A DNA stretch of 64,000 nt from an uncultured Flavobacteriaceae bacterium (lineage in GTDB: Bacteria; Bacteroidota; Bacteroidia; Flavobacteriales; Flavobacteriaceae): positions 7,182-71,181 of the forward strand of contig CAYGQJ010000013.1 in the NCBI GenBank assembly GCA_964351845.1, given 5' to 3'. This document shows, piece after piece, positions 12,811 through 58,608 of the stretch (position 1 is its first letter; each line of letters starts with the position of its first letter). Made by a program: the position numbers and the translations under genes. The notes beneath the pieces are model-generated. The model did not search any database. It was given only the letters and a program-made list of their open reading frames with translations, and was not told the origin of the DNA.

Positions 12811-12860
12811 CGCTTTCACGTAAGTGAAGTTTATACTGAGCCCGTCGAAGTACGAAAGCG
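12811..12860. repeat. Palindrome-A-like hairpin interrupted by a family C element
   Basis: CGCTTTC...GAAAGCG arms enclosing AGTTTATACTGAGCCCGTCGAAGT (12828-12851). Confidence 0.7.
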
Positions 12861-17320: not shown

Positions 17321-18379
17321 ATGAATTTAAAAACGTATCTATTCTTCGTTTTCCTTCTATCTTTTGCTTTCGCGAAAGCGCAAGACCAAAAAACCTACAA
17401 GCCACACACCATCGCTTTTTATAACGTAGAAAATCTTTTTGATACGGAAAATGATCCTATTACATTTGATGATGACCGTACGCCAGACGGAAAAGATCAT
17501 TGGACCGAAGCTATCTATGCAGATAAAATACAGAAAATGGCGCGTGTCATCTCAGAAATAGGCAAAGACATTACAAAAAATGCCCCTGCTATTATTGGAC
17601 TGGCTGAAATAGAAAATAGAAAAACCGTAGAGGCACTTGCTAATGATCCTCAATTACTAGACAAAGAGTATGGAATAGCCCATTTTGACTCCCCAGATCG
17701 AAGAGGAATTGATGTCGCTCTTATGTATCAGAAAGCAATATTTACGCCTATACACATTAGTAAACACGAGCTTATTATTTACACTAATGACGATGCTAAA
17801 AAACGTAAATATACACGCGATCAACTACTGGTTTCGGGTTTATTGGATGGGGATATGATTCATGTGATTGTCAACCACTGGCCTTCGCGTTCTGGTGGAG
17901 AAGCCCGAAGTCGTAAAAAACGTATGGCAGCGGCAGCACTTAATAAAAAAATCATAGATAGCCTTCAAAGTAATGACCCGTATGCAAAAATCATCACCAT
18001 GGGAGATCTTAACGACGACCCGACAAGCCCGAGTGTAAAAAAAGTATTGAAAGCTAAAGGAGATAAAGACAAAATAAAAGATAAGATGCTCTATAATCCT
18101 ATGGAGCCTATGTTTAAAAAAGGGATGGGTACCTTAGCTTATAGAGATGGTTGGAATCTTTTTGATCAAATCTTAATTACAGAACCCTTATTACGTAAAG
18201 AATATAGTTCCTACAGGTATTTTAAAGCGGGTATTTATAACAAAAATTACCTCAACACCCCAAAGGGTCGGTACAAAGGATATCCGTATCGCAGCTTTGC
18301 TAATGGAGGCTACACGGGAGGGTATAGTGATCATTATCCCGTATATATTGTCCTTATCAAAGAAGTAGCAGATAATTAG
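17321..18379 (+). CDS. Secreted endonuclease/exonuclease/phosphatase (EEP) family nuclease
   Basis: IAFYNVENLFDT, GLAEIEN, DRRGIDVAL, VNHWPSR, MGDLND, LFDQI, GYSDHYPV. Confidence 0.9.
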   Translation: MNLKTYLFFVFLLSFAFAKAQDQKTYKPHTIAFYNVENLFDTENDPITFDDDRTPDGKDHWTEAIYADKIQKMARVISEIGKDITKNAPAIIGLAEIENRKTVEALANDPQLLDKEYGIAHFDSPDRRGIDVALMYQKAIFTPIHISKHELIIYTNDDAKKRKYTRDQLLVSGLLDGDMIHVIVNHWPSRSGGEARSRKKRMAAAALNKKIIDSLQSNDPYAKIITMGDLNDDPTSPSVKKVLKAKGDKDKIKDKMLYNPMEPMFKKGMGTLAYRDGWNLFDQILITEPLLRKEYSSYRYFKAGIYNKNYLNTPKGRYKGYPYRSFANGGYTGGYSDHYPVYIVLIKEVADN

Positions 18380-18391
18380 ATTTCTTTTATT

Positions 18392-18452
18392 CGCTCCTGC
18401 CTGCCGGCGAGGCAGGTTTGAGAAATGGTATGCTGAGCCTGTCGAAGTAGCG
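18392..18452. repeat. Degenerate palindrome A carrying a B insert in one arm and a C insert in the other
   Basis: CGCT|CCTGCCTGCCGGCGAGGCAGG|TTTGAGAA|ATGGTATGCTGAGCCTGTCGAAGT|AGCG. Confidence 0.8.
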
Positions 18453-18467
18453 TACCACCAAAAATAA

Positions 18468-18500
18468 AAGAGGGAAGATGTTTTGCATCTTCCCTCTCTT
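18468..18500. terminator. Intrinsic terminator between convergent genes
   Basis: AGAGGGAAGATG-ttttg-CATCTTCCCTCT with A/T-rich flanks. Confidence 0.75.
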
Positions 18501-18520
18501 GTTTTAATTATCTTTATAAG

Positions 18521-29081: not shown

Positions 29082-29117
29082 CGCTTTCGCGAACCTGCCT
29101 GACGGCAGGCAGGAGCG
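29082..29117. repeat. Palindrome A split by a 20-nt B insert
   Basis: CGCTTTCGCGAA|CCTGCCTGACGGCAGGCAGG|AGCG. Confidence 0.9.
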
Positions 29118-30301: not shown

Positions 30302-30510
30302 GGTATTGTATAAGTTTAGATTGCTATTAAAGGTACTTAAAATCAAGCAATCAATGACTATTCTGGGTTTCTCTTTATGAGAAATTTCAGTAACAATGGG
30401 AGGTATGTCCAGCTTTTGTTTGACATTGCGATAAAGATACGGGTTTTTTATATGTGTTTGGTATGTGTTTTACACGCTTTCGCGAAAGCATATAAAGCAT
30501 CACCATTTTT

Positions 30511-31620
30511 CTAGAACTCAAACCGCAATTGCACATCGATTTCTTTTTCTTCAAGTGTTGTCTTAGCTTTCTTTTTATCTTCTGTATTCAAATTAGACAG
30601 TGAGATGCCTAACAACCGTACACTATCCTTCATTTTTTCTTGATATAAAAGCTCTTTGGCGGTTTCTAGAATCACATCTTTGGTGCGTACATAATAATCG
30701 AGTGTTCTGCTACGCGTTTGTAAGGTAAAATCAGAGTATTTAATCTTAAGGGTTACCGTTTTTCCAGCGACGTTGCTTTTAGAAAGGCGTTTCTCCACCT
30801 CCTCGGCAATATGATCTAGGCGCTCCATCATAAAAACTTCTGAGGTAATATTTTCAGAAAATGTACGCTCCGCAGCAAGGGATTTTCGAATGCGATTGGG
30901 TTTCACCTGACTGTATTGAATCCCTCTTACAATATCATAATAATACGCCCCACTTTTCCCAAAATGTTGCGCCAAATATTCTTTGGACTTCTTTTTCATA
31001 TCCAGTCCTGTAAAAATTCCCTTTTGGTACATTTTTTCAGCCGTTACCTTCCCAATTCCATAAAACTTACGGATGTCAAGGGTCTCTAAAAAAGCAACCA
31101 CCTCCTCTGGCGGAATGGTTTTCTGTCCATTGGGTTTATTGATATCGCTGGCCACCTTAGCCACAAACTTATTAATGCTAATGCCCGCCGAAGCATTCAA
31201 TCCTGTTTTTTCTTTGATTTTCTGACGTATCCAGGTAGCAATCACCGTAGCACTGGGCATGCCTACTTTATTTTCAGTGACATCCAGGTAGGCTTCATCA
31301 AGAGATAAAGGCTCTACAAGATCTGTAAACTCATGAAAGACTTCTCGTATTTGCTTTGAAACTTCGTTATAGCGTGCAAAATCAGAGCGAACAAAAATAA
31401 GTTCAGGACATAATTTACGCGCTAGCACCCCACTCATGGCACTTCGCACCCCAAATTTACGCGCTTCGTAACTCGCTGCGCTCACTACGCCACGCTCACC
31501 TCCACCCCCCACAGCAATCGCTTTTCCTCGTAAACTAGGATCATCCAACTGCGCTACAGATGCATAAAATGCATCCATATCTACATGAATAATCTTACGA
31601 ATAGGGAGGGACGTTTCCAT
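30511..31620 (-). CDS. dinB: DNA polymerase IV
   Basis: IIHVDMDAFYASV, AASYEARKFGVRSAM, SLDEAYLD, AKVASD..KPNG; probable start METSLP (ORF track start 31656). Confidence 0.96.
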   Translation of the reverse strand: METSLPIRKIIHVDMDAFYASVAQLDDPSLRGKAIAVGGGGERGVVSAASYEARKFGVRSAMSGVLARKLCPELIFVRSDFARYNEVSKQIREVFHEFTDLVEPLSLDEAYLDVTENKVGMPSATVIATWIRQKIKEKTGLNASAGISINKFVAKVASDINKPNGQKTIPPEEVVAFLETLDIRKFYGIGKVTAEKMYQKGIFTGLDMKKKSKEYLAQHFGKSGAYYYDIVRGIQYSQVKPNRIRKSLAAERTFSENITSEVFMMERLDHIAEEVEKRLSKSNVAGKTVTLKIKYSDFTLQTRSRTLDYYVRTKDVILETAKELLYQEKMKDSVRLLGISLSNLNTEDKKKAKTTLEEKEIDVQLRFEF

Positions 31621-31677
31621 AACATGCAAGGTACGGATTAGCCTAGAAGTTTTCAATAGATATTGTACATTTGAGAT

Positions 31678-32346
31678 ATGCCAAAAACAGCCATCATATT
31701 AGGAGCGACAGGACTTACAGGAGGCCTCTTAACCGAACTTCTCATCAATGATCCTGCCTATTCAAAAATCAAACTCCTTACCAGAAGACCTACCACATTT
31801 TCCAGCCCTAAAATAGAAGAAGTCATTTGTGATCTGCTTAACCTAGAAACGGTCAAAGAAGAGGTTACAGGAGATGTCGTTTTTTGCTGTATTGGTACCA
31901 CAAAAGCCAAAACACCTAATCGAGATCTATATCACAAGATTGATTACGGAATTCCGCTAAAAGCTGCAAAACTTGCAATAGAAAATAAGATAACCACGTT
32001 TATGGTGGTCTCCTCTATAGGCACTTCTGCTAAAAGCCCGTTTTTCTATGTCCGTACCAAAGGAGAAATGGAACGCGATGTGCTAAAAATAGGGATCCCA
32101 CATACCTATATTATGAAACCTGCCTTTATCAATGGCCGTCCCGATGAAGATCGAAAAGGAGAAAAAAGCCTTAAACTCCTCATGCGTATCATGGACTTTT
32201 TTATGGTAGGACCACTTAAAAAATACAAATCTACACAGGCACTACAAATCGCCAAAGCCATGGCATATCTCGGGACACACGATCACAAAGAACAGAATGT
32301 GCTCAATGATCAAATCAAAACACTAAGCAATGCCTATAGCATTTGA
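31678..32346 (+). CDS. NAD(P)H-binding short-chain oxidoreductase (TIP30/YraR-like)
   Basis: ILGATGLTG, FCCIGTT, IDYGIP, FYVRTKGEME; TACATTTG -7 box at 31666-31673. Confidence 0.85.
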   Translation: MPKTAIILGATGLTGGLLTELLINDPAYSKIKLLTRRPTTFSSPKIEEVICDLLNLETVKEEVTGDVVFCCIGTTKAKTPNRDLYHKIDYGIPLKAAKLAIENKITTFMVVSSIGTSAKSPFFYVRTKGEMERDVLKIGIPHTYIMKPAFINGRPDEDRKGEKSLKLLMRIMDFFMVGPLKKYKSTQALQIAKAMAYLGTHDHKEQNVLNDQIKTLSNAYSI

Positions 32347-32740
32347 TCACATCACGGCACCTTCAAAAAACCTAGAGGCTTCCATTGCATTCTATAAAAA
32401 GATAGGAATGACACTTATTGAGATAGAACCTAAGCATCATGCGCACTTTGAAAATAAGGAACATCATACCATTTTTACTGTATATTACAACACAAAACGC
32501 CCAGAAGATGACGTCATTATTTACTTTGAAGTCACTCATATTGAGTTATTGGAAGTCCGCTTTCGCGAACTTGCCTCGCCAGCAGGCAGGAGCGAATACT
32601 TCATAAAAACAAACTACGCTACTTCCTGGGGAGGTCACGAACTTCACCTGAAAGACCCAGACGGAAATTGTGTAATTTTATATCAAAAGAATCAAACGGG
32701 AAATACCCCGCCTTGGCAAACCGCAACATATGAATCTTAA
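32330..32740 (+). CDS. VOC/glyoxalase family protein with an in-frame 21-nt repeat insertion
   Basis: FDHIT...FYKKIG...WGGHELHLKDPDGN; a split palindrome A plus B insert encodes RFRE-LASPAGR-SE. Confidence 0.8.
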   Translation: MPIAFDHITAPSKNLEASIAFYKKIGMTLIEIEPKHHAHFENKEHHTIFTVYYNTKRPEDDVIIYFEVTHIELLEVRFRELASPAGRSEYFIKTNYATSWGGHELHLKDPDGNCVILYQKNQTGNTPPWQTATYES

Positions 32741-34964: not shown

Positions 34965-35429
34965 TCAGACCCCTTTCAATAATCGTTTATCAAAAACAAT
35001 AGGAAGTTCATCCACAATCTTAACCTTAGAAAAATCAGGATGCTTTGGATTTATAAGAATATTATCATCTATGGGATTAATCGCCGAGGGAACGCTAAGG
35101 CATAAAAACTCAGCCTTCGCTACAAATTGATCTCCAATATCTAAAACAGTAGGATGTTCTGTTCTATGTATCCAATCTTCTGGCAAGTCCTCTAGAGCAA
35201 TACGACCCATGGTCATCGTCTTAGGAAATTCCAGTACGATAATTTTTAAATCTTTAGGAAATACATACACAGGAATATGCACTAATTTCTCAAGCATCGC
35301 CAGCGAACTATTTCCCGCTGTATAAAGCACCGAAGTCCCTTTACGGTTCCATCTTCCCCCATAAAGACGAGCCCCTTCGCCAGAGAGGTCTTTGGCATAG
35401 GTATCTTTGGCTATTCTATATACTCGCAT
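34965..35429 (-). CDS. RES domain toxin (NAD+ phosphorylase family)
   Basis: MRVYRIAK..Y..DLSGEGARLYGGRWN..G..VLYTA.NSSLAMLE.LVH, VPSAI, NILINPKHPDF. Confidence 0.92.
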   Translation of the reverse strand: MRVYRIAKDTYAKDLSGEGARLYGGRWNRKGTSVLYTAGNSSLAMLEKLVHIPVYVFPKDLKIIVLEFPKTMTMGRIALEDLPEDWIHRTEHPTVLDIGDQFVAKAEFLCLSVPSAINPIDDNILINPKHPDFSKVKIVDELPIVFDKRLLKGV

Positions 35430-35431
35430 AC

Positions 35432-35932
35432 TTATACGACGATACCATGAGCCATTCTATCTAATAAGATCTCTACAGAATCTATCCCGTAGGTGGTATC
35501 AAGCATAGACAACGGAGTTTGATTTTCAAAGGCGTAATTTGGGATACTTAACCATTTTCTAAACCCTTCTTTACTCCCAAAAAAATCCCATCCTTTTTCA
35601 AAGAGAATAGACACTTCAAGAATACGTTCTGTTTGAGGCGTAGATAATCGTTTTTTATCCTTGTGGATGCGCTCTAAGGTACGCTCAGAAATATGAAGTA
35701 ATTGTGCTAGCTCTTGTTTTGAAAAATCAAAAGCCTCTACAGCCAATAAAAATTTTGGATACGATAATCCTTCTCTAGAAACGTGAACTAATCGTAGCGT
35801 AGAACGATCTCCTACAGGGGTGTCACGCATAATAACTGCGGGTTCTGAAACTCCAGAAATATCAATATCACTCCCTGAAACTAAGTTTTGAACTAGGTTT
35901 CCAGATGTATTATAGGCCGTATCGTCACTCAT
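35432..35932 (-). CDS. Xre/MbcA/ParS antitoxin
   Basis: HTH (FSKQELAQLLHISERTLER), C-terminal WL..PN.AF..QTPLSMLDTTYGIDSV..LL.RMAHG; directly upstream of the RES toxin. Confidence 0.9.
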   Translation of the reverse strand: MSDDTAYNTSGNLVQNLVSGSDIDISGVSEPAVIMRDTPVGDRSTLRLVHVSREGLSYPKFLLAVEAFDFSKQELAQLLHISERTLERIHKDKKRLSTPQTERILEVSILFEKGWDFFGSKEGFRKWLSIPNYAFENQTPLSMLDTTYGIDSVEILLDRMAHGIVV

Positions 35933-38361: not shown

Positions 38362-38391
38362 CTTGAATTTATGTTTATTTTTCTTGTTTTT

Positions 38392-38574
38392 ACCCCTTCC
38401 GTCAATAGCGCCGCTCTCGCTTCACTATTGCCACCTTCCCTGCCAGGGGAAGGAGCTCATGAGATAGTTATCTTTTAAACTTGGTGGAAATCTATTTGAT
38501 TTTCACCCCTTTTTAAGGCTCTCCTCCTTGAAAGGGAGGAGTGGCATTCGCCCAAGCGAATGACGAGGTGGGTC
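38392..38574. repeat. Family F hairpin pair (F1 forward 38392-38456, F2 reverse 38515-38574) downstream of DUF559
   Basis: ACCCCTTCCGTC-[hairpin]-GCCACCTTCCC..GGGGAAGGAGC and an inverted relative; repeated at 39017-39201. Confidence 0.88.
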
Positions 38575-38585
38575 AACCATCATCT

Positions 38586-38975
38586 TCATACCTCACATTC
38601 CTCATCTCCCAAAAAATGATCCTCAATATCCTTCAAAACACTCGGTAGCAAATTAAAAACCATCTTATTCTCAAACCGAATTACCGTTAACCCCTTGGAT
38701 GCCAGAAACTGTGTTCGTTTCTCATCTTTTTCTTGAGCCGTTGGATTCATATGAGGTTGCCCGTCTAATTCTATGACTAACTTCTCCGAAGCACAATAAA
38801 AATCAACGATATACTTCCCAACCCCATGCTGTCTTCTAAATTTTCTCCCCGCTAATTTTCGTTCTTTCAAATGATTCCACAAAAACGCCTCCGCTGATGT
38901 CAACCCATTACGCAATGATTTTCTAAAACCTTTCGTGTATTCCGGATCGTGGAGTTTTGGCTTTTTACTTCTCAA
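38586..38975 (-). CDS. DUF559 (Vsr-like) endonuclease domain protein
   Basis: RKSLRNGLTSAEAFLWNHLK..KLAGRKFRRQH.VGKYIVDFYC...KLVIELDG..H...DEKRT.FL...GLTVIRFEN. Confidence 0.92.
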   Translation of the reverse strand: MRSKKPKLHDPEYTKGFRKSLRNGLTSAEAFLWNHLKERKLAGRKFRRQHGVGKYIVDFYCASEKLVIELDGQPHMNPTAQEKDEKRTQFLASKGLTVIRFENKMVFNLLPSVLKDIEDHFLGDEECEV

Positions 38976-39016
38976 AATTGTGTTTTTTGTATTTCCTATT
39001 ATATTCTACTATTTTC

Positions 39017-39201
39017 ACCCCTTCCGTCAATAGTACCGCTCTCGCTCTACTATTGCCACCTTCCCCTGCTAGGGGAAGGAGCACTTACTAACTTTATTTT
39101 TTTTACAAGAGAAGCTATTTGTTTCTATACTTACTTTTTAAAAGCTCCCCTCATTGAAAGGGAGGAGTGGCATTTGCCAAAGGCAAATGACGGGGTGGGT
39201 C
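39017..39201. repeat. Family F hairpin pair (F1 39017-39082, F2 39141-39201) upstream of DUF559
   Basis: Near-identical direct repeat of the two elements at 38392-38574, with stem-preserving changes. Confidence 0.88.
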
Positions 39202-39230
39202 CGCTAGCCACTCTGCTACTTATCTACTCC

Positions 39231-46873: not shown

Positions 46874-48223
46874 ATGAACCGTACGATCCTCTCTTTTTTA
46901 GTCAGTTTTTTGATTTCTACATCTATTTTCCTGTCATCCGAACAGGCAGGCGCGCAAGCGGACTTTTTACAGTCAGGGCCTATGGTGGGATATTCTGATT
47001 TTCGAGAAGTACTGATTTGGGTACAAACCAAAGCTCCTGCCGATGTGAAAATTGGATATTTCGCTCAAGGCGAAAAGGAACGATTCACACCCACCGTTAC
47101 CGCTACAGCAGCCGAAGATCATATTGTAAAATTATTTCCAAGTGACGTGGCATATGGAACGCAATACACCTATAAATTATACATCAATAATCAACATGTA
47201 AAACGCCCGTATCCTTTAGAATTCCAAACGCAAACCTTATGGCAATATCGCACAGATCCGCCATCATTTACCTTTGCGATTGGATCTTGTTTTTATCGGA
47301 ATGACCCTACAGATGACCGCCCTGGAAAACCGTATGGAGATGTCTACGGAATCTTTGAGAGTATCGTTCAAAAAAGTCCTGATTTTATGGTCTGGCTGGG
47401 GGACAATATTTACCTACGCACCCCCGATTTCCAATCTGAACGTGGCATCCGATATCGGAACCGAGAAGCGCGTGCCACACCAGAATTACAATCTTTATTA
47501 GGAAGTGTACATCACTACGCGATTTGGGATGACCACGATTTTGGCCCCAATGATTCTGATCGGAGTTATGTACATAAAAAAATGACTGAAAAAGCCTTTA
47601 ACGACTATTGGGGGAATCCGAGTACCAATGCCACTGGAGAAGGCGGGATTACGGGACAATTTGTGTGGAATGATGTCGAGTTCTTCTTGATGGATGATCG
47701 CTATCACCGCGCACCTAACCGAAGTCTTGACACTACTAAAGACTACCTTGGAGAAGCGCAACTCAACTGGCTTATAGATGCGCTAACGGCTAGTAAAGCA
47801 TCTTTCAAAATCGTATGTATTGGTGGGCAAACCATCAGTGATGCGGCGGTGTACGAAAACTACGCCACGTATCCAGAAGCCCGCAAGCGTTTATTAGATC
47901 GTATTGCCGCCGAAAAGATAGAAGGCGTTGTCTTTATGAGTGGAGACAGGCATCATACGGAGATCTCTCGTTTAGAACGCCCAAATGCCTATCCGCTGAT
48001 TGATATTACGTGTTCGCCGCTTACTTCGGGCACCCATAAAGCCCGTGATGAAGGAAATACGTTACAAGTAAAAGACAAAACGTATTATGAGCGCAACTTT
48101 GGCATAGTCAACGTTTCTGGAACGTATGGAAAACGTACGCTTCTACTTACCATTTATGACGAAAAAGGGGCAAAAGTATGGGATTATACGATCTCACAAG
48201 AGGAATTGAAGTATCAAAAATAA
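46874..48223 (+). CDS. phoD: PhoD family alkaline phosphatase
   Basis: FAIGSCF, WLGDNIY, IWDDHDF, FFLMDDRYHR, LGEAQLNWL, MSGDRHH. Confidence 0.88.
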   Translation: MNRTILSFLVSFLISTSIFLSSEQAGAQADFLQSGPMVGYSDFREVLIWVQTKAPADVKIGYFAQGEKERFTPTVTATAAEDHIVKLFPSDVAYGTQYTYKLYINNQHVKRPYPLEFQTQTLWQYRTDPPSFTFAIGSCFYRNDPTDDRPGKPYGDVYGIFESIVQKSPDFMVWLGDNIYLRTPDFQSERGIRYRNREARATPELQSLLGSVHHYAIWDDHDFGPNDSDRSYVHKKMTEKAFNDYWGNPSTNATGEGGITGQFVWNDVEFFLMDDRYHRAPNRSLDTTKDYLGEAQLNWLIDALTASKASFKIVCIGGQTISDAAVYENYATYPEARKRLLDRIAAEKIEGVVFMSGDRHHTEISRLERPNAYPLIDITCSPLTSGTHKARDEGNTLQVKDKTYYERNFGIVNVSGTYGKRTLLLTIYDEKGAKVWDYTISQEELKYQK

Positions 48224-48224
48224 A

Positions 48225-48453
48225 GCCGGGGCTTCAGTACAATTTTTAGGATTGCTTTTAGCAATTATAAAAATCACTCAGCCACCTTTGATCCGTTTTT
48301 AATATGTGCTTTCGCGAAAATCACTTAGCCGCCTTATATTTTGTTTTAAAGTCGGCATTTCGATACATTTTGCTTCAATAGAAAAAGAATCAAAGGACAT
48401 TGAGTGATTTCAGAGTTCTGAAAAAGAACTCTGAAATAGTACCGAAATGCCGG
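48225..48453. repeat. X/Y mosaic (BIME/REPIN-like) unit 1
   Basis: X GGGGCTTCAGTAC..ATCACTCAGCCACC (48225-48287), partial A+X (48308-48333), Y GGACATTGAGTGA..GTACCGAAATGCCGG (48395-48453). Confidence 0.88.
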
Positions 48454-48458
48454 GTTCT

Positions 48459-49952: not shown

Positions 49953-50045
49953 GTGTGATTGTTTAGTAGTATAGACGCGTCATTTTCACAAAAGGTTGTC
50001 TCGCATCTTTTTTTATGACGATTTTATAGATGGAATGTTACTTAA

Positions 50046-50239
50046 GCCGGGGCTTCGGTACAATTTTTAGGATTGCTTTCAGCAATGATAAAAATCACTC
50101 AGCCGCCTTTGATTTGTTTTTGTTATATGCTTTCGCGAAAGCAAAAAATTACTCAGACGCCTAACATTACAACAAACACAGGACATTGAGTGATTTTAAA
50201 ATCCTGATAAAGGGTTTTGAAATAGTATCGAAATGTCGG
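50046..50239. repeat. X/Y mosaic unit 2 with an embedded palindrome A
   Basis: X 50046-50108, A 50129-50142, Y 50181-50239. Confidence 0.88.
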
Positions 50240-50253
50240 ATCAATAAGAAATA

Positions 50254-50412: not shown

Positions 50413-50437
50413 AAAGCAAAGATAGTGAAGATTAATT

Positions 50438-50562
50438 GGGGGCTTCGGTACAATTTCCGCTTACGCGAAAATCACTCAGCCGCCTAGCATTGTATCAAGG
50501 AGAGGACATTGAGTAATTTCAAAATCCTGAAAAAGGATTTTGAAATAGTATCGAAATGCCGG
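50438..50562. repeat. X/Y mosaic unit 3
   Basis: X with an A-like core (50438-50485), Y 50504-50562. Confidence 0.88.
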
Positions 50563-51220: not shown

Positions 51221-51494
51221 CTTTTCATTCCCTTGAATTTACCTACCGACAGGCAGGGATGGGAATCTCATCATAACGTAAAAGTACGGTTTAATCTACG
51301 TATGAGGAATTTGATTGGTTTTATACCGCTTATGATTCTTTTTAATTCCCGTGAAGACGGGAATCTAATTCTTTTTTTGATTACGTTTCAGAGCTTGAGA
51401 TTCCCGTAGTTATTTACTGATAAGCAGCTAGTAAAATAACATGAGATTCCCGCCGGAGTTTATGCTGAGCATAGTCGAAGTGCGGGAATGAAAG
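51221..51494. repeat. Cluster of family D (ATTCCC-N8-GGGAAT) hairpins, two with nested inserts
   Basis: 51227-51266 (with a 20-nt B insert), 51345-51364 (intact), half copy near 51397, 51446-51489 (with a C insert). Confidence 0.85.
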
Positions 51495-53192: not shown

Positions 53193-53474
53193 CCGGCATT
53201 TCGGTACAATTTATAAAGTGCTTTCAGCACTTTATAAATCACTCAATGTCCTAGCAGTGTTACAATGTAACAAACACACCCCTTAATCCCCTACTTCGAC
53301 AAGCTCAGCACAGCGTCTTTCTAGAGGGGAAACTCATACTTTAAATGTTTTAAAACTAAATGTAAGGTGGCTGAGTGATTTCGAAGCATGAGAAATAGTA
53401 TCGAAGCCACCGAGTCAAGAACTCAATGTAAGGTGGCTGCCTGTTTTGCTGAAAGCAAAAGGTACCGAAGCCCC
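53193..53474. repeat. Mosaic unit 5: inverted Y, an F hairpin with a C insert, two inverted X copies
   Basis: Y 53193-53251; CCCCT|24 nt|CTTTCTAGAGGGG 53288-53329; X 53365-53410 and 53430-53474. Confidence 0.85.
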
Positions 53475-55886: not shown

Positions 55887-55921
55887 CGCTCCTTACTTAT
55901 CGGCTGCGGGTTCGCGAAAGC
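55887..55921. repeat. Palindrome A split by a degenerate 20-nt insert at the B site
   Basis: CGCT|CCTTACTTATCGGCTGCGGG|TTCGCGAAAGC. Confidence 0.75.
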
Positions 55922-55967
55922 ATACACATCTGCACAATACATCTTCCTAATTCTAAAAACACGATTT

Positions 55968-58481: not shown

Positions 58482-58530
58482 AAAAAAGGGATTTGGTATT
58501 GGGGATTAGGAATTAGTATGCTATTATTTT

Positions 58531-58580
58531 GCTTTCGCGAAAGCCCTCTCTGCCCTTTGGGCATCTCTCCCAGAGGGAAA
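58531..58580. repeat. Palindrome A abutting a family F-like element
   Basis: GCTTTCGCGAAAGC followed by CCTCTC-TGCCCTTTGGGCA-TCTCTCCCAGAGGGA. Confidence 0.7.
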
Positions 58581-58608
58581 GAACTTTCTCAATATGACAA
58601 CAATCAAT

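Follow-up and report, generated by a model that had tools for sequence, protein, structure and literature searches.

Two different 20–24-nt mini-elements nested at mirror-image positions of an abundant palindrome in Flavobacteriaceae

The SDRs of cyanobacteria are reportedly hairpin-forming modules that nest in one another and lack target duplications, and their mobility is said to have been deduced from the comparison of filled with empty orthologous sites. One such module, SDR5, is inserted precisely between nucleotides 3 and 4 of the palindrome HIP1 (GCGATCGC) in Nostocaceae (Elhai 2008, quoted in PMC4390886 and PMC5861425), and passages of PMC5861425 place no SDR-like repeat outside Nostocaceae among HIP1-rich cyanobacterial genomes. 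PMC3733652 describes REP elements that sit within small palindromes, as well as REPs lying in frame in open reading frames. Both cases precede the architecture reported here, which a preliminary description of the locus had taken to be undescribed.

We analysed a 64-kb stretch of DNA from an uncultured Flavobacteriaceae bacterium (hereafter the window) and found two different 20–24-nt mini-elements, B and C, nested at mirror-image positions in a pre-existing palindrome, A. Compared with the SDRs in those quoted passages, B and C are of similar size (17–22 nt for B and 24 nt for C, with a C variant of 34 nt, against ~21–27 nt) and likewise too small for autonomy, and, as with SDR5 in HIP1, insertion occurs at one exact bond, away from the centre, of a palindrome that is hyper-abundant (GCG^ATCGC in HIP1, CGCT^TTCG in A). 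On the same accounts, the present system differs from SDRs in its occurrence in Bacteroidota rather than Cyanobacteria, in a host palindrome of 16–20 bp rather than the 8 bp of HIP1, in the presence of two different modules at both mirror positions of one palindrome, and in having one copy in frame in a gene. A search of open-access full text returned no paper with the A, B or C sequences, nor one describing such repeats in Dokdonia, Flavobacteria or Bacteroidota. We regard the B/C system as a further form of the rare, mechanistically unsolved SDR-like elements, one that adds a phylum to their range and for which the allelic evidence is unusually clear.

The nested repeat occupies positions 18392–18452 of the window and reads CGCT / CCTGCCTGCCGGCGAGGCAGG / TTTGAGAA / ATGGTATGCTGAGCCTGTCGAAGT / AGCG. 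The left outer arm of A (CGCT, 18392–18395), contiguous with TTCGCGAAAGCG in the empty alleles of three relatives (L001, L010 and L014), is followed by B, a 21-nt GC-rich palindromic module (18396–18416), by the core of A, where TTCGCGAA has decayed to TTTGAGAA (18417–18424), by the 24-nt module C (18425–18448), and by the right outer arm AGCG with the ancestral flank TACCA (18449–18457), which pairs with the 5′ part of C; C is assigned to the plus strand and the other features carry no strand. With B and C excised, the remaining sequence is CGCTTTTGAGAAAGCG, which mismatches palindrome A (CGCTTTCGCGAAAGCG) at two positions, and the coordinates, module lengths and two-mismatch residual given in the preliminary description hold to the base. 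Other copies of A+B from the same metagenomes show TTCGCGAA at the core, differing from the window at 18419 (T>C) and 18421 (A>C), and the flank AGCGTACC beyond the right arm is present already in empty alleles. The junction of B, CGCT^TTC, can be placed unambiguously. The junction of C can be placed at either GAA^AGCG or GAAA^GCG because A is both the first base of C and the next host base, and the mirror-image arrangement first proposed, with one module per arm, is therefore true to within 1 nt. The repeat lies between a stop codon (18379) and a bidirectional intrinsic terminator separating convergent genes (18466–18505, no strand assigned). The product of the flanking gene (17321–18379) is an Exo_endo_phos_3 protein with its best relatives in Dokdonia spp. 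(81–94% identity), contigs from biofilm metagenomes are near-identical to the window, and Rfam contains no family matching the nested repeat.

Comparison of the orthologous locus from 18 relatives, with the same intergenic site read in each, demonstrates that the nesting of B and C in A is real. An empty, uninterrupted A is present in L001, L010 and L014 (…TATACGCTTTCGCGAAAGCGTACC…), A with C and without B in L011 and L012 (CGCTTTCGCGAA / ATGGTAT..AAGT / AGCG), and A with B and without C in L003, L008, L009 and L021 (a CGCT-like arm / B / TTCGCAAAAGCG). In L007, B is present and C absent, with a degenerate right arm, and in more distant genomes the site lacks A. Among the loci compared, only the window holds both modules. 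The alignment of sister strains that had been suggested for this site yields both empty and filled alleles and shows, as originally proposed, that B and C were inserted separately into a palindrome that was there before them. On a neighbour-joining tree of a single gene the four states are interleaved, and B and C, two characters 8 bp apart, occur in all four presence/absence combinations among close relatives. Whatever the tree, four combinations at this distance require recurrent insertion or precise loss; recombination between the B and C positions is an implausible source of them.

Empty orthologous alleles exist for four filled sites in total (18392, 29082, 32558 and 12811). At 29082–29117 (no strand assigned), a 20-nt B (29094–29113) occupies GAA^AGCG in the arrangement CGCTTTCGCGAA / CCTGCCTGACGGCAGGCAGG / AGCG, and the corresponding site in L142 is an exact empty A, CGCTTTCGCGAAAGCG, with matching flanks. 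At 32558–32594 (no strand assigned), a 21-nt B (32570–32590) lies in frame in a VOC/glyoxalase gene (32330–32740) and adds seven amino acids immediately downstream of an invariant RFRE, reading LASPAGR or closely similar to it. Protein alignment finds the insert in the window protein and its two closest homologues, all 136 amino acids long, and six more distant orthologues of 122–129 amino acids read RFRES or RFREN, gapless and without insert; the DNA of L142, L143 and L144 carries an intact empty A at this site. Removal of B at 29082 and 32558 restores A with zero mismatches, so insertion entailed neither duplication nor loss of target sequence, and the claim that target duplication is absent stands with exact junctions. 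A degenerate 20-nt B (55891–55910) sits at CGCT^TTCG in a further copy of A (55887–55922, no strand assigned; CGCT / CCTTACTTATCGGCTGCGGG / TTCGCGAAAGCA), and a 34-nt C-like unit occupies the centre of A at 12811–12860 on the plus strand (CGCTTTC / ACGTAAGTGAAGTTTATACTGAGCCCGTCGAAGT / ACGAAAGCG), opposite an empty A at the orthologous position L001:5436. The reverse case is found at 30475, where A is intact in the window and L142 carries a ~45-nt hairpin element, G, after CGCTTTCGCGAAA. In the window itself, A is abutted by G (CCCTCTCTGCCCTTTGGGCATCTCTCCCAGAGGGAAAGAA) at 58530–58585 (plus strand). We separately observed two unlinked sites at which G, an element of ~40–45 nt (CCCTCTCTGCCYTTYRGGCATCTCTCCCARAGGGARAGAA), directly adjoins the right arm of A, at 58546–58585 in the window and at ~1850–1900 in L142. 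A DDE-type cut-and-paste reaction with staggered cuts at symmetric bonds was considered and rejected, as it would duplicate TTCGCGAA and no such duplication is seen.

The B family has the consensus CCTGCCTGCCGGCAGGCAGG, a perfect 20-bp palindrome with ends CCTGCC../..GGCAGG, and because the consensus is symmetric the orientation of B is undefined. Individual copies are 17–22 nt long, with the variation arising from loop indels, and the copy at 18396–18416 folds as a hairpin of −6.8 kcal/mol. Changes in the B arms are transitions (G>A and C>T) of a decay-like rather than covarying kind. The window copies differ from one another by several changes and so give no sign of very recent activity. At four sites in the window, B occupies CGCT^TTCG or the mirror of this bond. 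When ~512 kb of low-GC loci were searched strictly and regardless of context, every B was inside A and all but one were at CGCT-B-TTCG or GCGAA-B-AGCG, the exception being a D. sinensis copy (L017:17971) shifted by 2 nt from the usual bond and flanked by GCG^ or CGCTTT^. Looser searches added the degenerate B at 55891, which is placed as usual, and a copy at 51238 that occupies the loop of a second palindrome, E. Two copies found without anchoring (L136:2990 and L039:3373) follow the same position rule.

We extended this analysis to assembled metagenome contigs using the pattern CGCTTTCGCGAACYTGCC, anchored on one junction only, in place of the gap pattern anchored on A that had been suggested, which chance matches would swamp. 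Among the 120 matches listed, ~85% were GC-rich coding chance matches (RFRE-L/P-A...) and only ~14 were true copies of B, and the free junction read AGCR in 12 of these 14 singly anchored copies. A scan for split A at all positions was noisy, with partial copies of A common, and is usable only after inspection. In the metagenome contigs, a spike in depth is limited to 18387–18425 (130–150 against 12 in X1, and 665–983 against 5 in X5), and A+B is at least ~10-fold multi-copy in the source metagenome. Other metagenomic copies of A+B have the canonical TTCGCGAA and continue without C; in one contig, both arms of the same A are filled by B.

Module C has a conserved core, CTGAGC-N2-3-GTCGAAGT, preceded by A(G/T)(T/G)(T/G)TAT(G/A)C, and further copies of the core lie at 12836, 51465 and 53293 (minus strand). 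C-like units vary from 24 to 34 nt, and C does not fold on its own. Its 5′ part (18426–18434, TGGTATGCT) pairs over 9 bp with AGCGTACCA, formed by the right arm of A and the ancestral flank, and mimics the outer left arm of A (TACGCT). We rejected the idea that this 5′ part is a local inverted copy of the flank, since the same 5′ part is found in C copies at other hosts. GTAG spans the junction between the end of C and its host in only two of four copies. Within A, C takes two positions, in the arm and in the centre, and C-like units always lie in hairpins, namely A (arm or centre), the loop of E, or a CCCCT..AGGGG hairpin. Palindrome E (ATTCCCG..CGGGAAT) is a second host family, with empty, B-filled and C-like-filled forms. 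E holds B in its loop (51238–51257, TTTACCTACCGACAGGCAGG) at 51227–51266 (no strand assigned), where the 5′ flank of B is TTGAA^; it is empty at 51345–51364 and also at L140:3201; and it holds a C-like unit in its loop (51457–51481) at 51446–51489 (plus strand; fold z = −3.7), with a comparable E+C junction at L052:9581. The CCCCT..AGGGG hairpin at 53283–53327 (minus strand) contains a C-like unit at 53293–53316.

These observations bear in different ways on what had been proposed for B and C. The core proposal, that two different micro-elements were inserted site-specifically at mirror positions of a palindrome, is supported by direct comparative evidence, and B lies at one bond or its mirror in nearly all copies. 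The proposal that oligonucleotides of fixed length are added to hairpins is overstated: lengths are 17–22 nt for B and 24–34 nt for C-like units, C also occurs in the centre of A, one D. sinensis B is displaced by 2 nt, and the mechanism finds no support here. Three observations had been named in advance as contrary to the nesting, namely scattered positions within A, a lack of empty alleles, and B and C being equally frequent outside hairpins. None of the three was made, and in the loci searched B and C were not seen outside hairpins or palindromes.

Next to these repeats we noted a MITE-like element in five copies of 130–235 bp, with ends CCGGGGCTTCGGTAC... and ...GTATCGAAATGCCGG, some of them with A in mid-element (for example at 50128). 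The copies lie in the window at 48221–48455, 50042–50240, 50432–50562, 51846–~51990 and 53188–~53470 and are clustered near thioredoxin and thiamine-phosphate synthase-like genes. The sequence AAATCACTCAGCC, which adjoins A at 48315 and 50469, was examined as a further insert and rejected, being part of a ~200-bp MITE-like element that contains A.

The host palindrome A is itself hyper-abundant. The window contains 19 matches to CGCTTTCGCGAAAGCG at up to three mismatches against 0.14 expected, including six copies of the exact 16-mer, and the inner 14-mer GCTTTCGCGAAAGC occurs 11 times; among 8-bp palindromes in the window, TTCGCGAA shows the strongest over-representation (17 against 0.79 expected). 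In every Dokdonia-clade locus fetched except L013, the density of A is 0.14–0.29 per kb. The palindrome extends to ~20 bp as TNCGCTTTCGCGAAAGCGNA, position −2 being T in 80% of sites and position −1 being A in 49%. Copies are both intergenic and intragenic, the latter in all three reading frames (AFAKA, LSRKR and RFRES), and in the window include those at 17365, 22813, 25913, 33365, 37706, 44322, 50620, 57435 and 61083. The PGI gene encodes 537 amino acids in all genomes, with or without A, and in L002 it reads TCTTTTTGTGAAACTC at the place of the window's A. Intragenic A is gained via substitution and not insertion; spread of A into genes by insertion was ruled out, as gene lengths are constant and the differences are substitutions. 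The sequence TATACGCTTTCGCGAAAGCG is identical across eight genomes in which the flanks are only 79–90% identical. Intact A is kept far above the conservation of its flanks, and A broken by B or C decays.

Palindrome A thus shares with HIP1 its hyper-abundance inside and outside genes and a conservation above that of its surroundings, and differs from it in its length of 16–20 bp and its occurrence in Flavobacteriaceae; judged by these sequence patterns, A behaves in a HIP1-like manner at twice the length. Several side observations concern the setting of A. The DNA 5′ of A (−12 to −1) is T-rich, with C at 2–10% at most positions against a background of 19%, and the 3′ side mirrors this T-rich, C-poor composition. 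Exact A also occurs in 42 stretches of IMG/VR viral contigs (L145–L186), several of which have 3–6 copies (for example UViG_3300040781_000495). No true copy of B or C was found in those 375 kb of A-bearing IMG/VR viral contigs, and B searched alone on viral contigs gave GC-rich chance matches only. In the window, a Y-family (impB/mucB/samB, DinB-like) DNA polymerase gene (30511–31656) lies near A-bearing intergenic regions, and a RES toxin / Xre-MbcA-ParS antitoxin pair is found at 34965–35932.

Other described elements share some of these features. REP, BIME and REPIN elements, which RAYT (Y1 HUH) transposases mobilise, are multi-copy palindromes of 20–40 nt that are mostly extragenic, lack target duplication and form mosaic clusters; B is likewise a multi-copy palindrome, and the C-like modules of D. 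sinensis form inverted doublets as REPs do. Unlike REPs, B and C lack the GTAG or CGTC tags that define REP superfamilies, B occurs only within host palindromes rather than free in intergenic DNA, and no RAYT gene was seen in the sequence searched. The "peel and paste" transposition of IS200/IS605 elements also leaves no target duplication and a seamless joint, the element entering a single strand on the 3′ side of a short motif, and one-strand insertion of this type would explain the independent filling of the two arms of A. In contrast to B, a symmetric 20-mer, IS200/IS605 elements and their miniature derivatives, the PATEs, are at least ~100 nt long and have a pair of dissimilar subterminal hairpins and an orientation that is fixed; the 5′ motif varies here (CGCT^ in A hosts, TTGAA^ in E, and GCG^ or CGCTTT^ in L017), and no TnpA was found. 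Rickettsia palindromic elements (RPEs) resemble B in being palindromic repeats in frame in functional genes, and at 100–150 bp are unlike it in size. Insertion sequences aimed at REP palindromes, such as IS1397 and ISKpn1, similarly use palindromes as landing pads, but are autonomous and kilobase-sized, and MITEs have terminal inverted repeats, target-site duplications and lengths of 70–300 bp, whereas the B and C units measure 20–24 nt and lack duplication.

The comparisons themselves show short palindromic modules entering existing palindromes at a defined bond, independently on either arm, and an occupancy that shifts repeatedly among close relatives. We consider it on balance probable that B and C are very small non-autonomous SDR/REP-like modules for which A is a landing pad, mobilised through single-strand nick-and-join by an enzyme acting in trans. 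A module would be joined at one phosphodiester, CGCT^TTCG, on the 3′ side of CGCT; as A is its own reverse complement, this bond is present once on each strand, so that either or both arms could be filled and the CGCT^...^AGCG mirror pattern would result. Insertion proceeds without target duplication and is apparently reversible or recurrent, with removal probably precise, and an interrupted A, no longer maintained, decays. The putative nuclease or transposase may act on A in a form that is probably single-stranded or hairpin-extruded, on one strand per event, and candidates are an enzyme of HUH/Y1 type or one of the small nucleases, GIY-YIG or DUF559, whose genes are found among repeats of this kind. 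We counted the presence of small hairpin elements in A and E alike (C in E, B in E and G in A) in favour of the landing-pad reading. A more specific proposal, in which a dedicated Dokdonia enzyme system introduces a nick at CGCT^TTCG in one or other strand of the 16–20-bp palindrome and inserts or takes out palindromic modules of 20–24 nt with no duplication, the enzyme being perhaps the GIY-YIG or DUF559 protein encoded between direct repeats of such modules, is one that we regard as unlikely on present evidence.

We searched for genes that could supply such an activity. A tblastn search of ~527 kb, weak because it used an approximate probe, gave no significant match to a Y1/HUH transposase, and the ORFs scanned contained no match to Pfam Y1_Tnp; ~527 kb is too small a sample for the lack of a Y1/HUH match to count against such an enzyme. 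In D. sinensis, a GIY-YIG nuclease gene (L017 1805–2110; Pfam E = 1e-20) lies between direct repeats of ~150 bp (L017:1638–2270) composed of the modules CCTTCGACTCCGCTCAGG and CCTGAGCGTAGTCGAAGG, which share the C core CTGAGC-N2-3-GTCGAAG and form inverted doublets, and this gene may be the autonomous partner on which the C family depends. The window itself has a gene for a DUF559 protein (Vsr-like endonuclease) on the minus strand (38586–38975). This gene, situated between pbpC-like and alpha-2-macroglobulin genes, is flanked by hairpin-rich direct repeats of ~200 bp (38387–38585 and 39012–39210), and the whole locus (38387–39210) looks like an inserted selfish nuclease cassette. A D. sinensis homologue (L017:4620–4982) is 64% identical and likewise flanked by repeats. 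We treat the GIY-YIG and DUF559 genes as leads to a trans-acting enzyme rather than as evidence for one.

The best-surviving alternative, which we regard as possible though somewhat improbable, dispenses with special chemistry: a broken or stalling A would be repaired or copied from another A, through short-patch conversion or template switching, and a nested insert would be carried along or removed in the process. Such copying accounts for the lack of duplication and, no less well than enzymatic insertion, for the fixed position, mirror symmetry and apparent precise loss of the inserts; it accords with the origin and maintenance of A in genes by substitution, as in the PGI of 537 amino acids throughout; it accommodates the shifted B of D. 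sinensis as a different founder event; and recurring composites (A+G at two loci and E+C at two loci) fit spread within particular host families. Against it, homology on one side of B is only 4–6 nt (CGCT plus TA), far below what homologous recombination usually needs, and the occurrence of B and C in unrelated hairpins (E and CCCCT..AGGGG) demands several founder insertions and hence an insertion mechanism again. Very much less probable is that the hairpins are not mobile DNA but selected functional modules, such as 3′-UTR stabilisers, terminator helpers or protein-binding sites. The composite does lie in a 3′ UTR just ahead of an intrinsic terminator, B followed by TTT resembles a weak terminator, and most filled sites are intergenic; yet the same 20–24-nt sequences occur at unlinked loci, one of them in a coding gene, the B arms of many copies decay by transitions without covariation, Rfam has no match, and presence and absence are patchy among close relatives. 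That there is no nesting at all, and that the 61 nt form a single composite repeat or have come together by chance to resemble a split A, is hardly credible even though a 38-nt TATTCGCT-B-TTYGMGAAA recurs at 32561–32598 (89% alike) and the A+B composite is multi-copy, for orthologous sites hold uninterrupted A, A+B or A+C between conserved flanks and, at the density that A has, a match of both split halves to it carries p << 0.001.

Ever since the 2008 description of the cyanobacterial SDRs, it has been asked how DNA elements of only ~20 nt can move. The landing-pad system identified here is an independent instance in another phylum. Its target is long and unambiguous, one site exists cleanly in empty, B, C and B+C forms, a gene contains an insert that keeps the frame, and several module families share the landing pad. 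It makes the question testable through comparative genomics and trap assays, Dokdonia being a culturable marine genus. There are also consequences for annotation and assembly, as contigs break at such repeats and small in-frame inserts appear in proteins. The analysis also demonstrates that Flavobacteriaceae have a hyper-abundant palindrome of HIP type, one that stays constant from species to species. If a dedicated enzyme system does act on this palindrome, B and C would be the smallest enzyme-mobilised DNA elements known, and the system would offer a second, experimentally tractable instance of the HIP/SDR relationship.
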